The notes under the pieces were generated by a model, which saw nothing but the letters and a program-made list of their open reading frames with translations, ran no database searches and was not told where the DNA came from. Positions 8,228 to 21,707 of a stretch of 32,000 nt of DNA are shown here, in pieces (position 1 is the stretch's first letter; each line of letters starts with the position of its first letter). The position numbers and the translations under genes are program-made. The stretch comes from Acaryochloris marina S15 (GTDB taxonomy: Bacteria > Cyanobacteriota > Cyanobacteriia > Thermosynechococcales > Thermosynechococcaceae), in NCBI RefSeq assembly GCF_018336915.1, contig NZ_CP064923.1, positions 2,370,001 through 2,402,000 on the forward strand. Reading direction: 5' to 3'.

Positions 8228-9618
8228 ATGACCCTACCATCGCAATTGCTAACCGTGCTAGCCCATGACGAATTTCTAGAACAAACTGAAGCACTCAAAG
8301 TATCAACCAGCCTGAGTCAGATGGTTTATATCGTTCTGCAAATGGGCTTGTTTCTAGCTCGCTGTCTTCTGGAGGATGAACTCTCAAGGCGCGCGAAAGC
8401 AGTATTTGTATGGCCTGTATGTACTACCTGCGGAACCCGCTTACATTCGAAGGGATGGGAATCTCGTCAGATGCAGACACTGGTAGGCACTATCTCTTGA
8501 AAGCGACGGGTGGGCCGTTGTCCCAAAGGATGTCCAGGCAGTCTGTTGACTCCCCTGGATCAAGCCATTGGGATTGCCCCTATCAGCACAGCAGCGAAGA
8601 ACTGGTGCGTCTGGGCTGCTTGTTGAGTCTGTTCATGCCCTATGAACTGGCCAGTTGGATGCTGGGTCAGTGGAGTGGTCTATCCGTGAGTCCATCCAGT
8701 TTGTGGAACTGGGTGCAATCCGTGGGTAACAAAGCTCAGCAGGAATTAGAAGCTCAACTCAACGCTCAATCATCAGGGACTCAGGCCCCTTGTGAAGCGA
8801 TTTCAGAGATGTTATCTGCTCTACCTTTGGCCATTGCCGCCGATGGTGTGATGGTCCCCTTTCGCCCCACCCCGAACTCACCCAAGGGAAAAATCCAGTG
8901 GCGAGAAGTCAAAGTCGCCATCTTAGCTCGCCTGGGAACACGGGTTACCCGAGCTAAAAAGGAGGTCCCCCAATTACTGCGTCGAAGACTGGTGGCAGTA
9001 TTGGGCGATATCGACCAGTTCATCCCTTTACTTCAACTCGAAGCTCACAAACAAGACTTTGAATCTGCTCCAAAAGTCATCTGGCTCAGTGATGGGGGAC
9101 GAGGCTTCTGGCGAGTCTATCGCACCTTGTTCTCTCATTGTGCTGTGGCAGTCCTCGACTTTTTTCATTCAGCAGGCCATCTGGCACGAGCAACTAAAGC
9201 GATGTTTGGAGATGCCCGCTCTGCTCAAGCCCAAGCCTGGTTCCGGCACTGGCGACACCAATTGCGACACGGGCAACACCTACTTGTATTACGGTCCTTG
9301 ACGATATTGATTCACTCACAACTGTTAACGGGAAAGTCTTTTTCAACGTTGCTCCAGGTGCAGGCTTATTTCCAACGCCATCATAACCACATCCGTTATC
9401 GGCACTTTGAACAGCAACAGATTCCTCTCGGGTCAGGAATGGTTGAAAGTGCATGCAAGTGGTTGATTCAGCAGCGCTTTAAGGGAGTTGGCATGCGCTG
9501 GAGTGAGGATGGTTTCAACCATTTACTGATCTTGAGAATTGCCTGGGTCAATGAACGGTTTGACTCCTTATTCCCAGAGGTGACCATTCCGAAAACTAAG
9601 GCATCCCCGATCCGCTAA
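8228..9618 (+). pseudogene. ISKra4-like transposase with an in-frame TGA and a 1-nt frameshift
   Basis: Split into ORFs 8228..8500 and 8410..9618. Reading past TGA 8498-8500 in the first frame gives '..CTTCGTRLHSKGWESRQMQTLVGTIS*KRRVGRCPKGCPGSLLTPLDQAIGIAP'. This completes a CxxC...CxxxC zinc-ribbon. The frame must then shift by one nt in the C-run at 8577-8580 to continue 'YQHSSEELVRLGCLL...'. Confidence 0.8.
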
Positions 9619-10669: not shown

Positions 10670-11062
10670 TCAAGGAATTTGGGTGGTCACTTGTCCGGGA
10701 TAAGTAATCTGGATAATACCGCCCCAGGTACAAAAGCATTTAGACGTGCTATTCAACGCTGGAAAATTATTGATCAATACGGTTGGTGAACCTGGTGCCC
10801 AAGGGGCAGGAATAACTGGAATACAGGGCATGGGGGTAAGGACTCCCAACGCTGCAGCCGTTGCCGAGGCTACGGTGGGATTCGCGAGAGAAGAACAAAC
10901 GCCAAAGGGTGGAATATTGGCGATGGGAGCATAGTCCATGATGGTGGCAGCTGCGGGACCTCCCGTCAGATCGGGGGGACCTTTAGGAATCACGATCAAG
11001 GAACTCGGTGCTGCACCAAATGAACATTGTAATGAAGCTCCCATGACGACCTGTTGAGCCAT
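10670..11062 (-). CDS. DUF4280-family PAAR-like spike-tip protein
   Basis: 'VVMGASLQCSFGAAPSSLIV...PFGVCSSLANPTVASATAAALGVLTPMPCIPVIPAPWAPGSPTVLINNFPALNSTSKCFCTWGGIIQI' is the characteristic DUF4280 signature. A perfect AAGGAGG Shine-Dalgarno (rc of 11071-11077) lies 8 nt upstream of the start. There is no C-terminal extension. Confidence 0.85.
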   Translation of the reverse strand: MAQQVVMGASLQCSFGAAPSSLIVIPKGPPDLTGGPAAATIMDYAPIANIPPFGVCSSLANPTVASATAAALGVLTPMPCIPVIPAPWAPGSPTVLINNFPALNSTSKCFCTWGGIIQITYPGQVTTQIP

Positions 11063-11084: not shown

Positions 11085-13043
11085 TCAATTGATCTTTACG
11101 ATTGAGCCTTTAATGCTATTTACCCCAGAGGCCTGAACAGTCACTAAGGCACCATCAATTTTAGTTTGGGCTGTCCCTTTCATAGCGGCCTGAACCCCTT
11201 GAATCGTGACGCCAGAATTGCTCAATTCAATGGATGAGCTACCCACCTTTAGCGTAATCTTGGTCGTTGCTGTTAGGGTAATTTCGCCAGCGTTCAGGCT
11301 AATTTTACGAGAACTACCGCTGGTTCCAGATTTAACATTGATATCTCCTGTCGAAATCATATCGATCTTGGCGGAGCCATTATCGTCTAGTAAGACTTTA
11401 TGTCCTCCCTTGGATTTTATTTCTAACTTTTTACCTTGATCATCCAACCGGGCATAATGTCCTTCTTTTGTTTTTAATTCGGTGAACTTTTCACTGTCAT
11501 TGAGATACAGATGGTGGCCATACACCGTATCTAAGTAAACTCCTTTTTTATTCGCATCTTTATCCTCTTCGACAAATTGGAGGGTATGGCCGGTGCGAGT
11601 TTTCACGGTTCGTAGATTGACCTTGCCGTCAACAATGGAACTATCCACCTTCTCTGGGGGACTATCTTTGCCATTCCACACCCCACCCATAATGTAGGGA
11701 CGGTGAATATCACCATGTTCAAACCCCACCAGCACCTCATCATCCACTTCGGGTAAACAGTCAAAACCGCGATTCTTGCCTGCGCCGCTGGCAACCATTC
11801 TGGCCCAGTTACTTTCATGTTCCTCTGTCAGGGTGGGAAATTTCACTCGGACTCGCCCCCACCCTTTAGGGTCTTTGTTATTGGTGACTTTACCGACCAA
11901 TAGGGTTTGCCCTGCCTGCAGCCGTTGAGCAGGGGCCAGCGTTGATAATAAATCTCCTCCCCGCAATCCCCGCACACTGAACTCAGTGGAATAAACCCGA
12001 TCTTGGAATAAATGGCGCGTTTCCGTGATGTAGTATTTACCGCTGTATTTCCCCATATCTTTGAGTTGGACGACTTGCCCCGTTCTCAAGTCGGGATTGC
12101 CTTCAGCCCTGGCATCCGCCACTACAAATTCACCTCCCAACTCATCAATTAAAGCCTGGGCAATGGTATCGGCTTCTTTGGCACTAAAGACTGGTTGATC
12201 CACCACAATCATTTTGGGAGTCGTGGGTTTGCCATTAAAGACGGTGCTTTGCTTCTGGCCGGAGCCATGATCTGTTGAGGTTAGCAATTTCTCGACATTT
12301 TTAGTGGAAACGATGGCTTCCTTCCGTTCATAATCCCAACCCCGCACTTCAACACTTTTCACTTGCTCTGCACTGGTCACCCGCACCCGAAAGCTATGTA
12401 GATCTTTGAGCCAGGTGAGGGAAATATTGGAGTTGGCCTTGGGCTTCCGAAAATTCATCTTGCCGTCTTGAACATAGAGTTCAAACCCATTTCGAGCCGC
12501 TCTCTCCCGCAAAAATTCCATATTGGTTTGGTTCTCTTGAAAAATATAGTCATGGGGAGAACCGCTGTTATCAATGCTGCCAACGGGAATTCCGACTTCT
12601 CCAATCACTTTTTTGACAACATCGGTGTCGGTCATATTTTGGAAGGAGCGATTGTAGCGACCTCGATGGAGTCGATGGGAGATATCGTAACCGCGAATCA
12701 CAATGGGGGCTTGGGAACTGGAGGTGAAATTCGTCTCCATGCCCGTGATTTCTCCATCCAGCACATAGCCTTGATTCTGATCATCAAAGTCCTGAGCTGC
12801 GGTGGTACTGCCGCTAAAGCCAATTTTGATGGTTTTACCGATCTGCAAGAGATCGTCATATTGCCAAGGGGCATCAACGGAGCGTCCAGAAAAGTAGTCA
12901 TTCTTGATTACCAGGACAAACATCCCAGGTAAGTGCAAGCTTTCTTCCACAGAAATCTGGAGGATATCTTCCATCAGCTCATTGGATGCTGTTTTACCAT
13001 CAATCTCTAGAAGTGGCTCGGCAATATAGGTGGTTGCAGGCAT
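11085..13043 (-). CDS. vgrG: VgrG-like spike/baseplate hub protein (gpD-like N-half, gp5 OB-fold, beta-helix)
   Basis: 652 aa. The N-terminal half resembles phage late control D. The OB-fold segment is 'WGRVRVKFPTLTEEHESNWARMVASGAGKNRGFDCLPEVDDEVLVGFEHGDIHRPYIMGGVWNG'. The C-terminal beta-helix repeats are 'GHKVLLDDNGSAKIDMISTGDINVKSG...ITLTATTKITLKVGSSSIELSNSGVTIQG'. No appended effector domain. Confidence 0.9.
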   Translation of the reverse strand: MPATTYIAEPLLEIDGKTASNELMEDILQISVEESLHLPGMFVLVIKNDYFSGRSVDAPWQYDDLLQIGKTIKIGFSGSTTAAQDFDDQNQGYVLDGEITGMETNFTSSSQAPIVIRGYDISHRLHRGRYNRSFQNMTDTDVVKKVIGEVGIPVGSIDNSGSPHDYIFQENQTNMEFLRERAARNGFELYVQDGKMNFRKPKANSNISLTWLKDLHSFRVRVTSAEQVKSVEVRGWDYERKEAIVSTKNVEKLLTSTDHGSGQKQSTVFNGKPTTPKMIVVDQPVFSAKEADTIAQALIDELGGEFVVADARAEGNPDLRTGQVVQLKDMGKYSGKYYITETRHLFQDRVYSTEFSVRGLRGGDLLSTLAPAQRLQAGQTLLVGKVTNNKDPKGWGRVRVKFPTLTEEHESNWARMVASGAGKNRGFDCLPEVDDEVLVGFEHGDIHRPYIMGGVWNGKDSPPEKVDSSIVDGKVNLRTVKTRTGHTLQFVEEDKDANKKGVYLDTVYGHHLYLNDSEKFTELKTKEGHYARLDDQGKKLEIKSKGGHKVLLDDNGSAKIDMISTGDINVKSGTSGSSRKISLNAGEITLTATTKITLKVGSSSIELSNSGVTIQGVQAAMKGTAQTKIDGALVTVQASGVNSIKGSIVKIN

Positions 13044-13078: not shown

Positions 13079-13657
13079 TTAGCGACCAAAGGTTGTCCGG
13101 TTGGAGCGACTATCCTGGGAGCGATTGGGGGAGGCAGACTGACTCCCTCCTGCACCTAGGCTGGACTCATCTATTTCCTTCAAGGACATATCGACCCGGG
13201 CTTGGACCGGTGTTCCATCAGGCAAGAATAAGGTGAGTTTGTAAGTAATTTGTTCGACAAAACACCGCAGATATTGCTGGTCTCCCCAAGTGAAGATATA
13301 GATAGGCGGTCGTTTGTTGGCAGCGTCACCACTGTCATCAAAATCCAAGGCTTTAATCAGTTTGCTGACATAGGCATCGATCACGCTTGTACCTTGTTCG
13401 TAGGTATCAAACAATATATTGCTTAAGGACAAAGAGCAGGCTTCCGGGTAGGCAAAGGTGACTTTGGGTAATCCCTTAGCGGTTCGTGCCCCTTGGCTTT
13501 CATTCAGGCGCATTGACTGCTGAAAGACCAATTCAGTGGGGTTGAACATAAATTCAATATCTTTACTCTTGTCCGTGGGTTGGTGGACTAAGGTTGCCTT
13601 GGCTAACTTGCCAGAGGCAACGGCACTGTTATTGCTGCGAGAGCCACTATAGGTCAT
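13079..13657 (-). CDS. CIS tube-initiator-like protein (Afp7/gp53-type N-terminal tube-fold domain, no LysM)
   Basis: Pattern 'KATL....DKSKDIEFMFNPTEL........LNES....AKGLPKVTFAYPEACSLSLSNILFDTY...PPIYIFTWGDQQYLRCFVEQITYKLTLFLPDGTPVQARVDMSLKE' matches the conserved N-domain of LysM-type CIS tube/baseplate-hub proteins. It is followed by a Ser/Arg-rich tail instead of a LysM domain. Confidence 0.75.
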   Translation of the reverse strand: MTYSGSRSNNSAVASGKLAKATLVHQPTDKSKDIEFMFNPTELVFQQSMRLNESQGARTAKGLPKVTFAYPEACSLSLSNILFDTYEQGTSVIDAYVSKLIKALDFDDSGDAANKRPPIYIFTWGDQQYLRCFVEQITYKLTLFLPDGTPVQARVDMSLKEIDESSLGAGGSQSASPNRSQDSRSNRTTFGR

Positions 13658-13686: not shown

Positions 13687-16600
13687 TCACCAAGGTAAGC
13701 GACCAGAATGATACCCTCCATGTCTCTCTCGCTCCACTTCCAGCCGCTGTCGGAGGATATGATAGATCTCCCTGGCTAAGATCTCGAAGCTTTGCTCATC
13801 TACTTTGGATGCGGTTGAAGTGTCGGTGTGGGATTGACGCATCACCACTTCTGTCGTTTGTAGAGGGGATGAGACTGGAGGAGGGGCAGCTAGAGCCTTT
13901 TGCAAGGTTTGAGCAGTCCGCCGGACAGATGCTGTTTTTCTTTGGACTCGCTTTTCTGGGTGAATTCCAGTGGGAGTGAGAACTAAATCTGAAGTGTCTT
14001 CAGGTACTGGGGTTTGTGGCTCTGCTTGGCGTTGGATGGCTGATGGCGATTGGACTGTGAATAGGTCTTCGATACTAGACCAGTTTGAGGGTAGTGCTGA
14101 GGGTTGGATTGTGGGTGCGATCGCATTCTCCGTATTCGCCTCAAAATCCTCCTCAGATAGCGCCGTGTCACCAGGGCTTAGATCTAATGGAATATTCGGG
14201 CGTTGCAAATGGCTGAGTTTTTGAGCACGATGCTGACGATTCGACTGGCTGGCAGGCCATAGGCTACTGATTAATTTCGGAGCAACAAAATTGTCGGCAA
14301 TGCTGGAAAGGGGAGAAGGCGCTTGGCCAGTCGCCAATAACTGGGCAACGGTTAGGTCTGGAGAATTCTCCTGTGGTAGTTCTAATTCAGGTGGTTGTGC
14401 TGCTATCTCAATGACTCGGCGTTGGCGCAAATCTGTAGAGTCAGGCTGAGCATTTATCTGATCTATCTTCAGCGCATCGAGAGTACCGCCTGATGGGTCT
14501 TGGTGCTGAATCGTAGGCTTAATGGGGGGCGATGATAATGGCTGGGTTGAAGCAAGTGAAGAGTCCGAACGATCTGCATCCGAAATCTGAATCTTTGAAT
14601 CAGGTGTTACTTGAGGCGGTTCTGCAACTTCAGATTTTTGTACAATGTTGGAGGAGATTTCTGTATGAGCAGGGTCAAACTCTGTTTCTACCTGAGAAGA
14701 GTGGCTCTCTGAATTCTTTTGAAGGATCTGATTCTCGTTGAGATCAGAGGATGGACTTGACGATATATCTTGACTGGGTAAATTAGCATTTTCGATGCTT
14801 CCATCAGGACGTTGAGCTGTAATTTCAATAACCCGACGGTGAAGAGACTCTACCTTGTCCGGTTGAGACTGGATGCTTTCTACTTTTTGAGGTGACGAAT
14901 CAGCAATATTTTCAGTTGGAAGTTGTTGTAAGTCTGGAGTTTTGGTGTCAGAAATACTCGGTTTGGCTAAGGGGGCCGGAGTAGCCTGATCCGAACGGGT
15001 TGTTGGGGTGGGTAGATCTGAACCTATCTTTGTCTTTGAAATTGTACTGGGCTGATGTGCAGACTGGATAATTTCTGATGCGTCTGAAATGTCAGTAAGA
15101 GCTGTATTAGAATCGTGAGACTGCTCAATGCTGGATGCTTGGATGGCAGGCTCTATAGTTGCTTCAGGCAAGTTATTGGGAGGTGATGTATCAACAGTTG
15201 GAGAGATGTGGCTATTTGGTGTAGCTTGCTGTTGTTCGGGCTGGTCTATTGACTGGGAAGGTTGGCTGTCTGGGGTTGGCTGGATTGAAAGAATATCTCT
15301 AGTATCTGGAGGTGATTCTTGGATGCGATCGCAATTATCATACGATTGCCCATTGCTTCCTTTCTGTAGCTGTGCTTCAACCGCGGGTTGGACAACAGAA
15401 ATCTCCACAGCCTGAATCGGAACGGTAGATGTTTGCTTTGATAACAACTTCGATATTTCTGTATTGGGTTCTGTTTGAGCAGAAGTCTTGTCTAGGACAG
15501 GAGTTTCCGGGGCTTTAGCCTGAGCATGTAACGGTTTGCTGGCATCACTGACATCCTTTCTTCGAGCAACTAATGGCTGATCACTATTTGATTGAGTCTC
15601 AATCTTTCGCTGAACGATGTTGCCCGTCTCAGCGATGCTAGCAGTATCACTGGTATTGCTTGGAGCTTGTGGCACATTATTTTCTTGAGATTCAAGAATC
15701 TTGGCATTCTGAGTGGCAGCAATAGCCGTATGGTCGGGCGCGTTTACCTTGAGGTCTGATTCAGATAAGCTTTGGTCTGATACTGTCTCTTTCGGTGGAT
15801 TTACGTTGGCTTGAATCGTTGGGGAAGCACTATTCGATACGTTGTCGTCTTGTTTCGGACTTTGAGATGTGTTGATATTAGTGCTATCCAGATTTTGACT
15901 AGTAGCTTCTGAGAGGTTAACTTCTATAACTACCTTTGGACTCTCTCTGTCGTCACTTTGCTTACTCTTCTTGGAAAGCTGAACCTGTTCTTCACTGAAT
16001 TCCTGGATAGATAAATCTGAGCCAGCGGGAAGCTGTTGTTGAGTTTGGCTAGTGATCGATGGCTGTTCAACCTTAGTTTGAACGGAGACTTCACTAATGG
16101 GAGGACGTTCTGGAGGATGCGATTCTGTTTCTAGAACATGTTGATCCAGAAAGTTTGGGGTTGGAGCGTTAGGTATATCGGGTTGAGATTGCTCCTGTAT
16201 AGTTTGTCGCTGGAGTAGGTTGTCTGGATCGCTGGTATTTGATACTTCTGAGTTTTCATCAGAGTCTGTGGACTCCTGTAACGATAGTTCAGCTTGAGAA
16301 AGTGAATGTGAACTTGGGGGGATAGCAGCTTTGGATTGTTTTATTCGATCATCAGCATTGTCGAGTTGTGATGATTGCTGATGAGTGACGTCCTGACGTT
16401 GAATAGAGTTATTAGTACTTGGAATTGAGGTCGCTTGATTGATCGCCTCACTTTGAGTAATGGAATTCTTCTGAGGGGAAAGTTGAATGGAATCTGAGGT
16501 GGGCAGAGAAGACAGCTCTGTTCGGTGCTGAAGGTTCGGTTCGCTAAAGGAGCTAGAACTTTCAGAATCCAAGGGCTTAGAGTTTATTTCCTCAGCTGGG

Positions 16601-19600
16601 ATAGGCTGCTTTTGAATAATTTCTGCTGTGGATGAGTGTCGTTTAATTGAGCTATCAGCTAAGGGAGAAGGAACCTCAGAGGGCTGTATGGAAGAGTGGG
16701 GTGTGTTTCTTGAAGGCTGGTCAGAGACTATTGGAGCGCGGGTCGAAGCTGCCTCGCTCCCATCGCCCGTGTCATGCTGCCTTTGGACCACTGCTGTATG
16801 TCCAGTGGTCGGTGATGATTGTGTGGGTACGTTTGGTCGTTCTAAAGGGTTGGACTGATGTGTCGATGGCGATGTTTCCTCTTGTTCAGTCAGTAAAGTT
16901 GGTCTGAGAGTTGTATCAGCTCCTGTATTCTCACTAGAAATTTTTGCGGGAGACGACGCTAGGTTCTGCTTGTTTGTCTGGCGTTTTGACTTTGTCTTTT
17001 TAGGCCTTAAGTTTGCCAACTGCTGGACAATGGTTGTACCTATTTTTGAGATATGGGAATTGAGGGAGAGATTGCGACTTTGAGATGATTTTGGTGTTGA
17101 GCCACGGTTTTCTGAACCTCGACTCGATACATCGGTTATTGGCTGTTCTGAGCTTGTTGAGGTTATCTCAGAGCTATCTGGAGTCCTTTGTATAGAGTCC
17201 TCATTGCCTGATGGCAAAGCTGGCTCATTTTGTCCTGAATCTTTTGGTGGCTGAGGAGTCTTTGCTTTATCAACAGAGCTAGCTTGAATAATTGGCTCAG
17301 TTGTGGATTCTGGTGGATTATTAGTGTCTTTTGCTGGGGAAGGAGGGATGGCGGGATTTACATCCGTTTGAACAAGACTTTCTGTTGCCGGGTTAGATGT
17401 AGAGGTTAGCTGTACCGAATCAGTCAATAATGGTTGTTCATTGCCATACACTTTGTCTGAACTAGGCTCAGCAGAGGCCTGAATATTATCTCTATTAAGC
17501 TCAGGAACATCTGCAGATTGTAGGGAGATGTTTTTCTGTGCAACTTCGGATGAGGTCGCTGGTTCAACTGAGCCAGCTTCCTGACATTGTATGGATTGAG
17601 GTAATTGCCTCCTCGAACTTTGTTTTCGGATCGACCGATCAACCCTCTCTTTAATTTCTGAACCTAGATTTGTGATTCTATCTGCGAATTGATTTTGAGT
17701 GGTTTGCCATCCAGGCTGGGCAGCATTGGGTTGTGCTTCTCCTTGGGCAACAAGTGCTGGGTTATGCCCTTCCCGTGGGGAAGATTCCTCAATACTATTT
17801 GGGGTAGGGAAGTCTACTTGCTCAGAAGGAAGAGGGGTCGGTATTGAGGATTGTGATGCTTCAGCTTTTTGTACCGTTGGTAATTCTTGGGTTTGGAGAT
17901 TTTCATCAGCAGTGACATCGGTGAGTCGACCTGACTGATTCTTGGGATGCTCTTGTTCGTTTGAACTAAGTTTAGATTTTGAATGAATAGCTGTATCTGG
18001 AACTGTATTGGGTGAAAATGGCTTAGCCTGAATGTCTGATTGAATAGATGTTACAGCGTTTTTATCTACAGCTTTACCACCACTACCTTGCGATGGCGAT
18101 GTATCTTCACCTACCGATTTTTGAGGCGAGACAGGGTTGATGGTCTGGTCTTTACGATTCTGCTCTGAGTTTTTGGATAAAAACTGCTGCTGTCTTTGGA
18201 GCGGATTGGACTCTTCATTTGGCTGAGGTTCAAGTTGGCGACTAACCGTATCCATGACCTGTTGACTGAAACGCGTCAGTCGTTGCAGGGGTTGAACTGG
18301 GAAGGGTCCCCGCGTCTTTGCTTTTGACCGAGACGAACTAGACTCAGCATTAGAAGTAACATCTGATGATGAGGTAGGTTTTTGCTGATCGGCACTCCCC
18401 TCGGGTGTGGATGATTCAGATTTAATTTGATCCGGTCTAGATGCCTTGGAGTCTGAGGTGGACTCAGTCCCCTCATTAGGACCAGCGATTGAATTAGGAT
18501 GTTTGTCTTGATGAATCGTTGGCTCAGACATTCCAAGAGACTTCGTTTGTAGTGGAGTGGAAGGCGAATGTTCTTGGGGTAAGTCTATAGACTCAGGAAT
18601 TGCTTGAACAGTTGGAGAATTCTCTTCATAGTCAGCATTCTCAGTGTTCACTGACAGCAGTTTTTCTTGGGACAGTTCTTGAGAAGGAGCTTTCTCTACA
18701 GCCTTTGTTCCTGTTTGGACTAGAGATACTTCAGAGGATGATTGTTTTGAGTCAGGGGACGATTTGGCTTGAAGCAATGGAGCGTTTGACAGTGGAGGTG
18801 AATCATTCGTGGATTTCTGTACCTCATTGGCCTTAGCTCTAGATTTACCAACAGGGAGTGATTGAGATGCCTGCTTAAGCTGAATACCAACTTTATTAAT
18901 ATCCTGTTGGGCTCGTTTCCCCATTCGCGAGAGCTGAGCTTGTAAGGGAAGCTTTTTCTGTTTGCTTTTTTTACTTTGTTTCGTTTGTTTTTTTTCAGGT
19001 GCTTTAGTAGATGCCTGAGGAGTTAAATCGTCTGCTCGTTGAATAGCTGTTGACTGTACCGCTTCCCCATCAATTTTTTCTGAAGTGCTGGGTATAGAAG
19101 GACTCTCAACGGATGGGAGGTTGTTACTAGGATTAATGCGGTTAGTCTCTACCTTTGGTATCTGTGGGTGATCCGTAGAAGACTGCTGAACAGCCGAACT
19201 TTCTGAGTTTTGAATAGTTGTTGTCTCTGTGGAGCTATCAGAAGTCTTGGCCGTTGAACTGGGTGGCTCGGAATTCTTAAGCAGTAAAGACTCATCATCT
19301 GGAGATTGTTGAGGAGATGCTGGGGTGACTGTTTGAACAATTGTTGTCTTGATGGGGGTTTCGTTAGTCTTGGGCTTAGGGCTAGGTGTTACAGGAGTTT
19401 CAATTGATGAACCACGATCAATTGAGTGACTTGGGTTAGCTTCTACTTTTGAGTTAGCGAGGGAAGCCTGTGAACGGCTAGTTTGCAGTTCATTTGGAGA
19501 AATAGGAGATGACTGTATAGTCCGCTTAGCAGGTAGATCTGTGGTGATGTCAGTCGCTTGTTCAGTGGGTGGAGTGGTTAGCTCGATGTCTTGAGCAGTC

Positions 19601-20952
19601 GCCTCAAGTGAAGTTTGGATTGGAACGGGTTGGGACTCGGGAGGTTGAACGTTAGATACTGGTTTTTCCTGAACAGGTTTAGAAGAAATAACTGGTTTTT
19701 GACTAGACAGTGGAGATGCTTTTGGGGCAGCTTCTTCTTTACTTTGGACAACCTGGGTGTTTTGAGTAGATAGAGCTAATGAATGGTCAGGGGCAGAAGA
19801 GACTTTTGGGAGGTTTGGTTGAATGGGGGTAGAGACTTCTGATGCTTCAGTTGGAGATGAATCAGAATTTGTAGAATTGGCAAGAGGTGAAGGGTCTAGG
19901 CTAGAAGATGTTACGTCTGAGTCTAGAGGAGTGGCCTGTTCTTGAGACTTAGGGAGACTCTCTTGGATTGCGGAGGGCTCGGAATTTGCCTTGATTTCTG
20001 GTAAATCCTGGCGTTTAGTCTGAAGGGGCGGCACATCTGTTGGGTGGGAAGAAGCACTCACCTCAGGAGATATCGCTTTGGATGAGGGATGTGCGATTGG
20101 TTTCTGGGGCGTTTGTTCAGGCTGGGGGTTGAACTCAGTACTGGGTTTGCCGGCAACCCCCTCTGATGATGTCTGAAGTCCCGGTGTGTTGTCTATTGGG
20201 GAGGAAGCAGGGGAATGTGCTGACTCTTGAGCATGGGATTCATGGGATGGCGGGCTAAGTTTAGAAGTCCTGACCAGCTTAGGTTGAAGTATTGTGTCAG
20301 GACTGCTTTGATCTTGAGCAATCTGTTTTTCTGATTCAACCTGCTCAGAATGAGGGACTAAAGACTGGGTAGAGATCTGATACTGCACAGGCTGAATAGA
20401 AGGGGCTGCAGCTTGGGTCGGGGCAGCATTAAGGACTGCATTAGTCTCACTGGATGACGATGGTTCTACTTCTGGTGCATTGCGATGGATCTTGTTAGCA
20501 TTGCTGGGTGCTGTTGGCGGCTCCTGATGGGTTGATAATTGCTCTAATTTAGGTTGCAGATTCTCGGCAGGTGCTTTCGGAGCAAGAGTGCTAGGTTGCG
20601 CTCCAGGAAACTGGGTTACGACGGATTGAGAGATGTTGGAAGCCATTGACGACAGCTCGTCAATGGCTTCCGTTGGCACCTGGGCAGCAAAATGGGTATT
20701 TAGAAGATTTGTCCGAGCTGTTTCGGTAGGCAGGGTGGCATCCAAGCTTATTAGGGATACAGTGCCCAAGGGAGATAGGGTATGGGGTTGGAGAAAGGAT
20801 TGTCCTAGAACAGGAGGAGGTAGCAGTGGATGTTGCAGGCCGAGCGAGTCTGAGGAAGGAATCTCTTCCGGCTGGGATTGATGACCTTGACCTGAATTGA
20901 CATCCATAAACAAACGTTTTGGGTTAGTTACTGGGGTAGAATCCTCCGGCAT
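13687..20952 (-). CDS. giant (2421 aa) low-complexity Ser/Pro/Gln/Thr/Glu-rich protein with a short ordered C-terminal motif; tape-measure-position protein of unknown function
   Basis: An uninterrupted 7.27-kb ORF cannot arise by chance. It is packed between the tube and tube-initiator genes. It is almost devoid of aromatic and Cys residues and has no recognisable enzymatic motif (no HExxH). The C-terminus is 'ILAREIYHILRQRLEVERERHGGYHSGRLPW'. An alternative start, ATG 20907, would remove the 29-nt overlap with the tube gene. Confidence 0.9.
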   Translation of the reverse strand: MPEDSTPVTNPKRLFMDVNSGQGHQSQPEEIPSSDSLGLQHPLLPPPVLGQSFLQPHTLSPLGTVSLISLDATLPTETARTNLLNTHFAAQVPTEAIDELSSMASNISQSVVTQFPGAQPSTLAPKAPAENLQPKLEQLSTHQEPPTAPSNANKIHRNAPEVEPSSSSETNAVLNAAPTQAAAPSIQPVQYQISTQSLVPHSEQVESEKQIAQDQSSPDTILQPKLVRTSKLSPPSHESHAQESAHSPASSPIDNTPGLQTSSEGVAGKPSTEFNPQPEQTPQKPIAHPSSKAISPEVSASSHPTDVPPLQTKRQDLPEIKANSEPSAIQESLPKSQEQATPLDSDVTSSSLDPSPLANSTNSDSSPTEASEVSTPIQPNLPKVSSAPDHSLALSTQNTQVVQSKEEAAPKASPLSSQKPVISSKPVQEKPVSNVQPPESQPVPIQTSLEATAQDIELTTPPTEQATDITTDLPAKRTIQSSPISPNELQTSRSQASLANSKVEANPSHSIDRGSSIETPVTPSPKPKTNETPIKTTIVQTVTPASPQQSPDDESLLLKNSEPPSSTAKTSDSSTETTTIQNSESSAVQQSSTDHPQIPKVETNRINPSNNLPSVESPSIPSTSEKIDGEAVQSTAIQRADDLTPQASTKAPEKKQTKQSKKSKQKKLPLQAQLSRMGKRAQQDINKVGIQLKQASQSLPVGKSRAKANEVQKSTNDSPPLSNAPLLQAKSSPDSKQSSSEVSLVQTGTKAVEKAPSQELSQEKLLSVNTENADYEENSPTVQAIPESIDLPQEHSPSTPLQTKSLGMSEPTIHQDKHPNSIAGPNEGTESTSDSKASRPDQIKSESSTPEGSADQQKPTSSSDVTSNAESSSSRSKAKTRGPFPVQPLQRLTRFSQQVMDTVSRQLEPQPNEESNPLQRQQQFLSKNSEQNRKDQTINPVSPQKSVGEDTSPSQGSGGKAVDKNAVTSIQSDIQAKPFSPNTVPDTAIHSKSKLSSNEQEHPKNQSGRLTDVTADENLQTQELPTVQKAEASQSSIPTPLPSEQVDFPTPNSIEESSPREGHNPALVAQGEAQPNAAQPGWQTTQNQFADRITNLGSEIKERVDRSIRKQSSRRQLPQSIQCQEAGSVEPATSSEVAQKNISLQSADVPELNRDNIQASAEPSSDKVYGNEQPLLTDSVQLTSTSNPATESLVQTDVNPAIPPSPAKDTNNPPESTTEPIIQASSVDKAKTPQPPKDSGQNEPALPSGNEDSIQRTPDSSEITSTSSEQPITDVSSRGSENRGSTPKSSQSRNLSLNSHISKIGTTIVQQLANLRPKKTKSKRQTNKQNLASSPAKISSENTGADTTLRPTLLTEQEETSPSTHQSNPLERPNVPTQSSPTTGHTAVVQRQHDTGDGSEAASTRAPIVSDQPSRNTPHSSIQPSEVPSPLADSSIKRHSSTAEIIQKQPIPAEEINSKPLDSESSSSFSEPNLQHRTELSSLPTSDSIQLSPQKNSITQSEAINQATSIPSTNNSIQRQDVTHQQSSQLDNADDRIKQSKAAIPPSSHSLSQAELSLQESTDSDENSEVSNTSDPDNLLQRQTIQEQSQPDIPNAPTPNFLDQHVLETESHPPERPPISEVSVQTKVEQPSITSQTQQQLPAGSDLSIQEFSEEQVQLSKKSKQSDDRESPKVVIEVNLSEATSQNLDSTNINTSQSPKQDDNVSNSASPTIQANVNPPKETVSDQSLSESDLKVNAPDHTAIAATQNAKILESQENNVPQAPSNTSDTASIAETGNIVQRKIETQSNSDQPLVARRKDVSDASKPLHAQAKAPETPVLDKTSAQTEPNTEISKLLSKQTSTVPIQAVEISVVQPAVEAQLQKGSNGQSYDNCDRIQESPPDTRDILSIQPTPDSQPSQSIDQPEQQQATPNSHISPTVDTSPPNNLPEATIEPAIQASSIEQSHDSNTALTDISDASEIIQSAHQPSTISKTKIGSDLPTPTTRSDQATPAPLAKPSISDTKTPDLQQLPTENIADSSPQKVESIQSQPDKVESLHRRVIEITAQRPDGSIENANLPSQDISSSPSSDLNENQILQKNSESHSSQVETEFDPAHTEISSNIVQKSEVAEPPQVTPDSKIQISDADRSDSSLASTQPLSSPPIKPTIQHQDPSGGTLDALKIDQINAQPDSTDLRQRRVIEIAAQPPELELPQENSPDLTVAQLLATGQAPSPLSSIADNFVAPKLISSLWPASQSNRQHRAQKLSHLQRPNIPLDLSPGDTALSEEDFEANTENAIAPTIQPSALPSNWSSIEDLFTVQSPSAIQRQAEPQTPVPEDTSDLVLTPTGIHPEKRVQRKTASVRRTAQTLQKALAAPPPVSSPLQTTEVVMRQSHTDTSTASKVDEQSFEILAREIYHILRQRLEVERERHGGYHSGRLPW

Positions 20953-21496
20953 CTCTACCTTTCAAGAAGGTAGCCCCACCGCCTGCGTTACTGCTGGGCT
21001 GCAGGTTGGCAACGACCTTTAGACCTTCGTATGCCAAGGTGAGTTCTTCAATGGCAACGGTAGATGTATCCGCTTGGAGAGCTGGAGCTTGCCAAGCCAC
21101 GGGGACGGCACCAATTAAGGTCCAGGTTTGAATGGTTTCTCCTGCTTGATTGAACAAGAGGATATTGATGTTGCGACGCTGGGGATTCACATTACGATCG
21201 GTCGGTTCTAACTGGGTGAGCATACGACTGGCCCAGCCCCAAAACACTAGATCATTCGTAATCCCTCGCTTGAGGGTGACATCAGAGAATTCAGTTTGAC
21301 CGAGTATGATTCGCTGCTGGTTGTTGACGCCGCCTTCAAAGTAGGTGTCATGCTTGATTTTGGCGCTTAACCCTGAACATTCGCTAAAGCAAGCACTGAT
21401 ATAGCTCTTTTCTTGGATTTCGACATAGAAGCGATTGGCAGTGACGTAGTTAAGGTTATGGGTTTCGCTGTTGCTAGCCACTAGTGCCGCCCCCAT
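20924..21496 (-). CDS. phage-tail/eCIS inner tube protein (T4 gp19-like, Afp1/Afp5-type)
   Basis: 'NRFYVEI....ISACFSECSGLSAKIKHDTYFEGGVNNQQRIILGQTEFSDVTLKRGITNDLVFWGW......RRNINILLFNQAGETIQTWTLIGAVPVAWQAPALQADTSTVAIEELTLAYEGL' matches the conserved phage-tail-region tube family. It carries an extra ~28-aa Gly-rich C-terminal extension. Confidence 0.88.
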   Translation of the reverse strand: MGAALVASNSETHNLNYVTANRFYVEIQEKSYISACFSECSGLSAKIKHDTYFEGGVNNQQRIILGQTEFSDVTLKRGITNDLVFWGWASRMLTQLEPTDRNVNPQRRNINILLFNQAGETIQTWTLIGAVPVAWQAPALQADTSTVAIEELTLAYEGLKVVANLQPSSNAGGGATFLKGRDAGGFYPSN

Positions 21497-21707
21497 AGTT
21501 CCGCTCGCGCTGATTTTGCAGGTCGTTTTGCATCAGTTCATAGATGCGATCGCATAATCGAGATTGCGCCAGTGGATCTTGCAAAATCTGGGCTGCTAAT
21601 CTGAAAACCCTGTCTCGATCAGATAGATCAGACAGTCCAGGCGAGCACCCCGCTGAAGCTGAATGGATTCTCTGGTTTTCTCCTAGAGACTGATCCCCTT
21701 GGCTCAT
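21474..21707 (-). CDS. small hypothetical protein (77 aa from ATG 21707; 102 aa if GTG 21782), first gene of the tail-like operon
   Basis: Its 3' end overlaps the tube gene start by 23 nt. Its C-terminus 'LCDRIYELMQNDLQNQRERNYGGGTSG' parallels the giant protein's C-terminus. Contains a HIP1 site. The start codon is uncertain. Confidence 0.55.
   Translation of the reverse strand: MSQGDQSLGENQRIHSASAGCSPGLSDLSDRDRVFRLAAQILQDPLAQSRLCDRIYELMQNDLQNQRERNYGGGTSG

Follow-up and report, generated by a model that had tools for sequence, protein, structure and literature searches.

This work concerns a giant open reading frame (ORF) of 7.3 kb in Acaryochloris marina S15, which lies in a stretch of 32,000 nucleotides (contig NZ_CP064923.1, positions 2,370,001 to 2,402,000; hereafter the window) that was analysed over its whole length. 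The giant belongs to a minus-strand cluster of six genes encoding parts of a contractile injection system (CIS). The genes for a small protein and a Cis5-like inner-tube adaptor precede it, and those for a Cis7-like tube initiator, a VgrG-like spike and a PAAR-like spike tip follow (Table 1). A first-pass annotation made from the letters alone had placed the giant between tube and tube initiator, and this agrees with the domain matches on both sides, Phage_T4_gp19/CIS5-like upstream and CIS_tube, VgrG and DUF4280 downstream. Its estimate that the gene makes up about two thirds of the operon is equally close, the giant occupying ~65% of the 11-kb cluster. The additional CIS5_fam match of the tube adaptor (7.8e-21) remains below the cutoff of that NCBIfam model, and a LysM domain was undetected in the Cis7-like initiator. 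The small 77-aa protein may act as the giant's partner or plug. No sheath, baseplate-wedge or ATPase gene is found within the window, nor is a tail assembly chaperone gene.

Table 1. Features of the giant ORF, of its cluster and of comparable slot proteins (pLDDT, predicted local distance difference test; L numbers are our locus designations)
Feature	Position	Strand	Length and remarks
Giant ORF	13687..20952	-	2421 aa from first ATG; orthologue of AM1_5909, A. marina MBIC11017
N-terminal motif, residues 32-70	20743..20859	-	SLGLQHPLLPPPxLGQSFLQPHTLSPLGxVSL; best-conserved block outside C-terminus
Internal helix 1, residues 670-697	18862..18945	-	Basic amphipathic; AlphaFold2 pLDDT 91-94; conserved island
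Internal helix 2, residues 888-907	18232..18291	-	AlphaFold2 pLDDT ~85
Internal helix 3, residues 1081-1114	17611..17712	-	AlphaFold2 pLDDT ~92
Internal helix 4, residues 1298-1314	17011..17061	-	AlphaFold2 pLDDT 53-58
Hypervariable, indel-rich segment, residues 1361-1500	16453..16872	-	Column conservation 0.41-0.52; gap fraction up to 0.4
C-terminal module, residues 2383-2421	13690..13806	-	Acidic patch, amphipathic helix 2386-2411, terminal RER-G-Y-SGRLPW
Small protein, AM1_5907 orthologue	21474..21707	-	77 aa; C-terminus LCDRIYELMQNDLQNQRERNYGG paralogous to giant's C-terminal helix
Cis5-like inner-tube adaptor	20924..21496	-	Pfam Phage_T4_gp19 2.4e-36; TIGR02241 7e-41
Cis7-like tube initiator	13079..13657	-	Pfam CIS_tube PF19266 1.4e-18
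VgrG-like spike	11085..13043	-	Phage_GPD and Phage_base_V
PAAR-like spike tip	10670..11062	-	DUF4280 6.9e-36; IglG-like match
Nostoc clade slot protein			~1090-1240 aa
Pseudanabaena slot protein			2408-2509 aa
Tumidithrix slot protein			2671-2907 aa
Streptomyces sp. NBC_01324 slot ORF			1020 aa
S. clavuligerus slot ORF	L089 11786-15931 (plasmid)		1381 aa; between DUF6760 and Cis5-like tube gene
S. cadmiisoli slot ORF			1009 aa
S. cattleyicolor slot ORF			at least 908 aa
Kitasatospora slot ORF	L090 11635-15366		1243 aa; eCIS_core and PASTA domains
Deinococcus slot ORF	L088 12755-18250		1831 aa; eCIS_core

The giant gene, its transcription and its predicted disorder

Read from its first ATG, the giant shares 29 nt with the 3′ end of the tube gene. 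The start of most of its orthologues corresponds to Met16 (MD[VA]NSG), so that the true coding sequence is probably 13687..20907, encoding 2406 aa. The 15 extra codons of the longer form (20908-20952, minus strand) would then be a mis-call and the overlap with the tube gene disappears. The longest ORF in the other frames of these 7.3 kb has 107 aa. As read by eye in the first-pass annotation, the protein is dominated by S (15.8%), P (10.7%), Q (9.9%), T (8.3%) and E (7.1%), which add up to 51.8%; F, W and Y together contribute 1.2%, and there are two Cys and seven Met. With 197 K+R against 300 D+E it is strongly acidic. The gene is not a simple repeat array because its DNA contains no tandem repeats. 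Scans of the whole giant and of its ends against Pfam (E up to 0.1 for the full protein, up to 10 for C-terminal fragments), NCBIfam and PHROG yielded no usable match, in keeping with the earlier impression that it carries no recognisable enzymatic motif. Sequence and profile searches of the PDB gave chance coiled-coil matches only, for example to FOXP3. A strand asymmetry accompanies the gene across 13687-20952, with a plus-strand GC skew of up to +0.36 and an AT skew down to -0.25; it stems from the abundance of C at second codon positions (38.5%) in a gene for a protein rich in Ser, Pro, Thr and Ala, and not from replication.

Because the HU gene corresponds to AM1_5906 and the 'Rhs element Vgr protein' to AM1_5911, the giant corresponds to AM1_5909 in the finished genome of A. 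marina MBIC11017, where the same six-gene cluster lies between HU and a Band-7 gene. The same arrangement is present in two more independent assemblies. Full-length orthologues (n=15 in Acaryochloris) measure 2188-2476 aa, share 45-91% identity and are collinear throughout, and in 15 lineages, at dS values of up to 0.56, the frame is uninterrupted. Compared with three strains, the ratio of non-synonymous to synonymous substitution rates (dN/dS) of the giant is 0.48-0.69; the tube, initiator, spike and tip genes have values of 0.00-0.07 and flanking housekeeping genes 0.00-0.21. Its amino acids are therefore weakly constrained, though the 7-kb frame stays open everywhere. Insertions and deletions (indels) between some strains reach 98-127 aa, a figure that applies to the protein as a whole.

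Published RNA sequencing of MBIC11017 provides evidence for expression. AM1_5907-AM1_5912 are all significantly induced in low-intensity far-red light, with log2 changes of -2.55 to -0.62 (-1.42 for AM1_5909, P 3e-5), and within the cluster the strongest response to far-red light is that of AM1_5907, the orthologue of the 77-aa protein gene (PMC11633204). Co-induced in this strain are the sheath gene AM1_0271 and the gp25 gene AM1_6406, while in strain MU13 the orthologues of AM1_0269-0278, AM1_6403 and AM1_6406 rank near the top of the induced genes (PMC11633204). Since AM1_0270-0276 and AM1_6403-6406 had earlier been listed as a phage-tail-like element (Sarris et al. 2014), this listing together with the co-induction identifies the cluster in the window as the third module of a split, co-regulated system. 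The giant is thus a real, transcribed gene that is co-regulated with the other modules. It was the literature that supplied the Acaryochloris sheath, which had been located neither by tblastn of plasmids nor by protein search.

The giant is predicted to be overwhelmingly disordered and non-helical. FoldIndex scores 84% of its 51-aa windows as unfolded; most control proteins from the window reach 0-14%, the sensor kinase 34% and VgrG 48%. AlphaFold2, applied to 1082 residues of the giant, found a single confident helix in residues 2141-2421 (2386-2411, pLDDT ~90), hinted at three tiny elements there and left the remainder below 50-60. In residues 560-1360, 679 of the 801 residues have a pLDDT <50 and four isolated amphipathic helices stand out. 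As the orthologue alignments were shallow (5-11 sequences), low pLDDT alone is weak evidence of disorder; it does agree with the composition and with FoldIndex. These results speak against folded domains along most of the length and support the first-pass view that the giant is not alpha-helical as tape measures are. Its statement that only the last ~40 residues look ordered was right as to the C-terminal helix and too narrow otherwise, since an N-terminal motif (residues 32-70) and the four internal helices also exist. These four helices follow one common repeat pattern, are spaced ~200 residues apart and sit on conservation islands; without a match in other family members, they are Acaryochloris-specific. 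The C-terminal module, which is the family's signature and which we propose to be the anchor to the initiator and spike, is invariant among the orthologues.

A cyanobacterial family and its probable relatives in other phyla

The giant is not an oddity of one operon and, judged by its sequence, is one member of a family present at at least 100 species-level loci. A word-indexed search with the 65-aa C-terminus returned three fragments only. The family was revealed by an exhaustive phmmer search of 1.84 billion representative proteins with the last 139 residues, which found 221 proteins at E <1e-3. The match mostly ends at the extreme C-terminus of these proteins, all of which finish with an acidic patch followed by LE.LAREIY..LRQRLEIERER.G.YSGRLPW, and their bodies are S/P/Q/T/E-rich and low in aromatic residues. 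Scanning one genome per species confirmed 105 family loci. Of the 80 loci that were fetched, all except one in a metagenome-assembled genome (MAG) labelled Acetobacteraceae are cyanobacterial or come from unclassified uncultured MAGs. The gene order was scored wherever a flank was present. It is small protein, Cis5-like tube, family protein, Cis7-like initiator and VgrG in 76/76 loci, these being the ones in which the ORF could be delimited, so that homologues adjoin tail genes wherever flanks exist. The family is unnamed in the databases searched (Pfam, NCBIfam, PHROG) and unrecognised by the Streptomyces CIS literature.

Variation in homologue length, which the first-pass annotation had suggested looking at, is considerable. 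Beyond the range seen in Acaryochloris, complete family proteins extend from 407 aa in a Phormidium MAG to 3245 aa in Aliinostoc. The 407-aa member (L012) is the closest relative outside Acaryochloris, with a tube 66% identical. It retains the N-terminal PLG..PLLP..LGQ..PLG, WS..EDL and DLV.TP.G blocks and the C-terminal helix. The general form of the N-terminal motif is PLG..PLLP...LGQ.FLQPKF..PLGA.S., and a loose screen for its PLG core ([PSA]LG[ILVNAM] in the first 130 residues) was positive in 36/53 sequences, several of which have the fuller motif. The ends kept in L012 and this screen together argue for an architecture of two conserved ends and a freely variable disordered middle. In the Aliinostoc protein (L081 386-10123) a PG_binding_1 domain is embedded within the disordered body. 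At three further loci (L024, L056 and L077) the motif-bearing ORF is short (272-614 aa) and starts 1.3-2.3 kb downstream of the tube gene, so the giant gene may be frameshifted, interrupted or affected by a sequencing error in these assemblies.

A homologue of the small protein is encoded upstream of the tube gene in ~50 cyanobacterial loci. It ends with L.DRVYELL..DLR.QRER..NYG, a sequence paralogous to the giant's helix. Where clusters are contiguous (L075, L009, L060), they have the make-up of ordinary phage-tail-like clusters and comprise sheath, tubes, two small proteins, the slot module, PAAR, effectors, eCIS_core (DUF4157), gp25 and Baseplate_J. One of the two small proteins has a weak gpE-type chaperone match, and Phage_TAC_7 matches in relatives (E 0.0033 in L075, 5.6e-5 in L086) are below the curated cutoff. 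No second tape-measure candidate was seen in the visible stretch of these complete clusters. A Pseudanabaena plasmid carries a separate sheath module together with a DUF4255 cap, an AAA ATPase, a 'phage tail assembly protein' and DUF6760, which indicates that split systems are common. At several loci (L012 5296-7839, L016 4388-6799, L060 2534-4996) a protein of ~800-850 aa with a C-terminal PstS/PBP-like domain is encoded next to the small-protein gene on its upstream side.

The cyanobacterial sheath is 39-42% identical to sheaths of Streptomyces-type clusters, where the order is sheath, tube, small protein, DUF6760, a large unnamed ORF, Cis5-like tube, initiator and VgrG. The small protein before DUF6760 is a gpE-like chaperone candidate, and the succession of tube, chaperone candidate, DUF6760 and slot protein corresponds to the P2 order E, E′, T. 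The Deinococcus cluster differs in that a second tube gene precedes the large ORF. The four Streptomyces-type slot ORFs are rich in Pro, Ala, Gly, Thr and Arg and essentially free of aromatic residues, while those of Kitasatospora and Deinococcus contain more Leu, Val and Glu. The folded domains inside some disordered bodies point to a modular family that is tied to DUF4157 proteins. All six slot ORFs terminate in a helix, for example DLDRLAQQIYGILKRRLATEVRREH, and hhalign aligned these C-termini with the cyanobacterial ones over 34 columns with a probability of 90.9% (P 1.1e-6). Homology of the cyanobacterial and the actinobacterial and Deinococcus slot proteins is therefore probable, and not certain because a plain hidden Markov model search gave no more than a weak match across phyla (E 0.04 within the locus). 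Of the S. clavuligerus slot ORF, the PLSDB gene table annotates the last 71 codons only. In S. coelicolor, Sco4251 is a candidate orthologue, and sco4249 (and by inference sco4250) is apparently transcribed divergently.

The disordered bodies share a short motif consisting of a hydrophobic residue, Gln and Arg or Lys. In the bodies of 48 family members IQR occurs 253 times where 9.9 are expected, with VIQ, QRK, VQR and LQR ranking next. The giant in the window itself contains 18 [ILV]Q[RK] (3.3 +/- 1.8 expected) and 60 matches to a looser form (21 +/- 4.6 expected). Two of the slot ORFs from the other phyla also bear the motif, that of S. clavuligerus with 20 VQR-type copies against 0.5 expected; this ORF contains 20 near-identical P-A-V-Q-R-T-P motifs. 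The same motif is enriched sevenfold (134 versus 18.9 expected) in the regions before HExxH of 35 neighbouring DUF4157-type proteins (ORFs from loci L013-L082, e.g. L075 16442-17158 and L060 13147-18525), often within the first ten residues, as in MKERIIQPKK and MREKIQRK. At these cargo N-termini it may be a lumen-loading signal. The C-terminal helix of the giant is absent from the neighbouring DUF4157 cargo proteins. A scheme with one motif per tube ring was dropped, since motif spacing is irregular and motif density differs widely between clades. The product of 20 motifs and three chains in S. clavuligerus equals the 60 tube layers of S. coelicolor, probably by coincidence.

A possible thread in the tube lumen

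We favour, with slightly better than even confidence, the interpretation that the giant is an internal thread of a class-II (Streptomyces-type) CIS, anchored by its C-terminus in the tube lumen. The reasons for a lumen protein are the fixed slot, the conserved ends, the paralogous partner, the upstream chaperone-like genes, the embedded wall-binding domains and the precedent of Tme. According to this proposal, the C-terminal amphipathic helix would dock in the cavity of the Cis7-like initiator and the VgrG spike, probably as an oligomer and possibly with the small paralogous protein. The tube would polymerise around the chain, the acidic disordered body of ~2,300 residues lying within the lumen and the N-terminal PLG motif marking the far end, toward the cap. 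Contraction would then expel the chain through the tube, ahead of or together with cargo. The hydrophobic-Gln-Arg/Lys motifs might contact the lumen or the loading machinery; we suggest this because DUF4157 cargo N-termini contain the same motif and because the loading sequences of AlgoCIS sit equivalently N-terminal. By analogy, the giant would be the functional counterpart of the phage tape measure and of Tme.

Tme (BN159_7576) of S. davawensis is, in kind, the closest described relative of the giant. This 2247-aa protein is ~70% disordered; besides DUF4157 and transmembrane helices it contains a segment remotely like a tape measure, and it ends in a nuclease. Encoded by the largest ORF directly upstream of the initiator and spike genes, it co-purifies with PAAR tip, VgrG and initiator, and its authors regard it as an effector that arose from tape measures (Nagakubo et al. 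2024, PMC11126660). The giant is likewise the largest ORF of its cluster, located upstream of initiator, spike and tip genes, and mostly disordered. Compared with Tme as described in that publication, it lacks DUF4157/eCIS_core, transmembrane helices and any coiled-coil or tape-measure-like segment, and where Tme has its EndA nuclease the giant ends in a short conserved helix. The slot proteins of Kitasatospora and Deinococcus combine the C-terminal helix of the family with the DUF4157/eCIS_core of Tme. The CIS clade to which Tme belongs differs from that of CIS-Sc.

Many phage tape measures carry wall-directed domains, and some members of the family similarly embed cell-wall-binding domains. 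With respect to the genes for tube, chaperones, initiator and hub, that of the giant has the position of a tape-measure gene (P2 gpT, T4 gp29 and the Cis14 proteins Afp14/Pvc14/Alg14), the protein is likewise large, and the related clusters possess an upstream chaperone candidate and DUF6760. That the gene occupies a tape-measure slot, as the first-pass annotation had it, accordingly gains support from the Streptomyces, Kitasatospora and Deinococcus clusters. In lineage I clusters, in contrast, the tape measure gene is downstream of the baseplate genes. Unlike tape measures, the giant is almost wholly disordered and not alpha-helical, with 10.7% Pro. In AlgoCIS the helical Alg14 is the ruler, with a CIS-wide slope of 0.2156 nm per residue, and disordered N-terminal sequences together with an AAA ATPase load lumen cargo (preprint 10.64898/2026.05.27.728243). 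From its length the giant would predict a tube of 360 nm at 0.15 nm/residue or ~520 nm at the slope of extracellular CIS (eCIS), far beyond described eCIS.

For lineage II systems, Afp14 homologues have been reported absent and unexplained subtype-specific genes present (PMC6899500), and Streptomyces CIS are said to be without a tape measure (PMC10066040). Chen 2019, Casu 2023 and the 2025 eLife CIS-Sc structure all state that class-II systems have no tape-measure homologue. CIS-Sc particles are nevertheless uniform, with a length of 268 nm and 60 tube layers (PMC12237407) or ~295 nm in negative stain (PMC10020575). A role of the giant in setting tube length is in our opinion rather doubtful, and we would rate a shade lower still the specific idea that the family is the 'missing' tape measure of class-II systems, measuring as a tube-confined disordered chain. 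This idea draws on the uniform particle length and on the lack of any other candidate gene. If it were true, particles should measure ~0.35-0.6 micrometres in Acaryochloris and Pseudanabaena, and lengths should scale with the 407-3245 aa of the slot proteins. By a rough volume estimate of our own, in which the lumen is 4 nm wide and each residue takes up 0.13 nm3, about two thirds of a 120-nm tube or ~15% of a 520-nm tube would be occupied by three 2406-residue chains. The latter value resembles the ~14% that we estimate for a chain of 1,200 residues in the Streptomyces tube of 268 nm, whose lumen looks 'empty' in cryo-electron tomography when effectors are missing. Both tube geometries are thus physically possible.

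Several observations weigh against a thread. The giant is non-helical, unlike the eCIS tape measures characterised so far, and its sequence resembles no tape-measure family of Pfam, NCBIfam or PHROGs and no PDB chain. The length of the slot protein varies eightfold, and sixfold with respect to the closest relative outside Acaryochloris, while its conservation within Acaryochloris is no better than that expected from randomly signed indels (P 0.11-0.84, sign randomisation). The lumen in S. coelicolor looks empty after deletion of the effectors (PMC10066040), so any resident thread there must be thin. Several members, the Nostoc clade, L052 and L060 among them, contain hardly any copies of the hydrophobic-Gln-Arg/Lys motif; its density being clade-dependent and near zero in some, it is not universally required. 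Finally, the family is known from genes and transcripts and not at the protein level.

The first-pass annotation had also considered a cargo packed in the lumen, and this remains a live rival to the thread. In its pure form the giant would be a Tme-like cargo or effector with no part in assembly or length, its body serving as a multiplied loading sequence or being active in the target. The motif shared with DUF4157 cargo N-termini fits such a role, as do the disordered N-terminal regions that act as lumen-loading signal in AlgoCIS (preprint 10.64898/2026.05.27.728243), the cargo-typical eCIS_core of the Kitasatospora and Deinococcus slot proteins and the description of Tme as an effector (PMC11126660). 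The eightfold length range and the dN/dS of 0.5-0.7 would suit a payload under diversifying pressure. Like the giant, DUF4157/eCIS_core cargo of the AlgoCIS Cgo1/2 type has disordered regions that contain the motif, and both would be lumen-associated according to the published model. The giant in the window, however, has neither eCIS_core nor any effector domain, and cargo proteins have no C-terminal helix. Cargo genes change place and vary from locus to locus while the slot gene is fixed in 76/76, and the slot protein is conserved at both ends. We consider pure cargo unlikely. The body would be neutral or merely entropic, and only the C-terminal helix would matter, if the giant were a spike plug of the Cis6/Afp6 type with a dispensable tail. 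Cis6 proteins are small, and the giant has 2406 aa; its slot between Cis5 and Cis7 is that of Cis6/Afp6/Pvc6, and its body evolves fast and varies freely in length. Cis6 forms a trimeric plug in the spike cavity, from which a flexible loop reaches into the lumen (Weiss et al. 2022, PMC8894136). The giant, however, has no detectable sequence or profile similarity to solved PDB chains, among which Cis6 chains should be present. A 7-kb ORF open in all lineages, with an N-terminal motif, internal islands and a biased motif content, is hard to explain as a tail of no consequence, and the separate small protein with the same helix suits the role of a plug better. This makes a plug improbable.

A surface fibre, tether or extracellular matrix protein, a further alternative of the first-pass annotation, might be suspected from the Ser/Thr/Pro-rich composition, which recalls cell-surface stalks, and from the peptidoglycan-binding domains of one family member. 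As the giant has no signal peptide and no membrane segment (maximum 19-residue hydropathy 0.93), and as its gene is placed between inner-tube and initiator genes, away from the baseplate wedge genes that fibre genes adjoin, we regard this as very improbable. An artefact, whether an assembly error, a spurious low-complexity ORF or a decaying pseudogene, could be imagined in view of the low-complexity composition, the lack of database domains and the high dN/dS. It is refuted by the intact orthologues in a finished genome and in independent assemblies, which disposes of the concern about assembly, and by the absence of DNA repeats, a dN/dS <1, regulated transcription and conserved termini common to several phyla; we attach practically no weight to it.

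With regard to length control, class-II CIS combine uniform particles with no recognised tape measure, and the family provides a concrete candidate gene. A disordered tape measure is a fairly novel possibility; a molecular ruler made of disordered polymer, if real, would change the view of length control in tail-like machines. Tube length determines cargo capacity (PROCIS preprint), a link that could be of use for engineering. Even if the slot protein is not a ruler, the family offers a conserved, putative docking helix, a small paralogous partner and a motif shared with cargo N-termini, the last being a clue to what directs proteins into the tube lumen. For Acaryochloris, a tractable host, the data describe a three-module injection system induced by far-red and low light, just two modules of which had previously been listed.

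Other genes of the window

The remaining genes of the window are housekeeping genes (PNPase, QueG, HU, aminotransferase, GST, EamA, MarR and a PAS kinase), and a scan for promoters and terminators found nothing beyond chance expectation. A 119-aa gene at 26607-26966 (plus strand), whose orthologue has a precomputed Pfam match to Phage_holin_4_2 (PF04020), has no evident tie to the injection-system cluster. At 8410-9618 (plus strand) the window carries an ISKra4-family transposase gene (NCBIfam 5.5e-62), which adjoins the Band-7 gene on its upstream side and is missing from the same site in MBIC11017 and two other strains. The Band-7 ORF of the window has 273 aa as compared with 295 aa in those strains, its 5′ end perhaps having been clipped.

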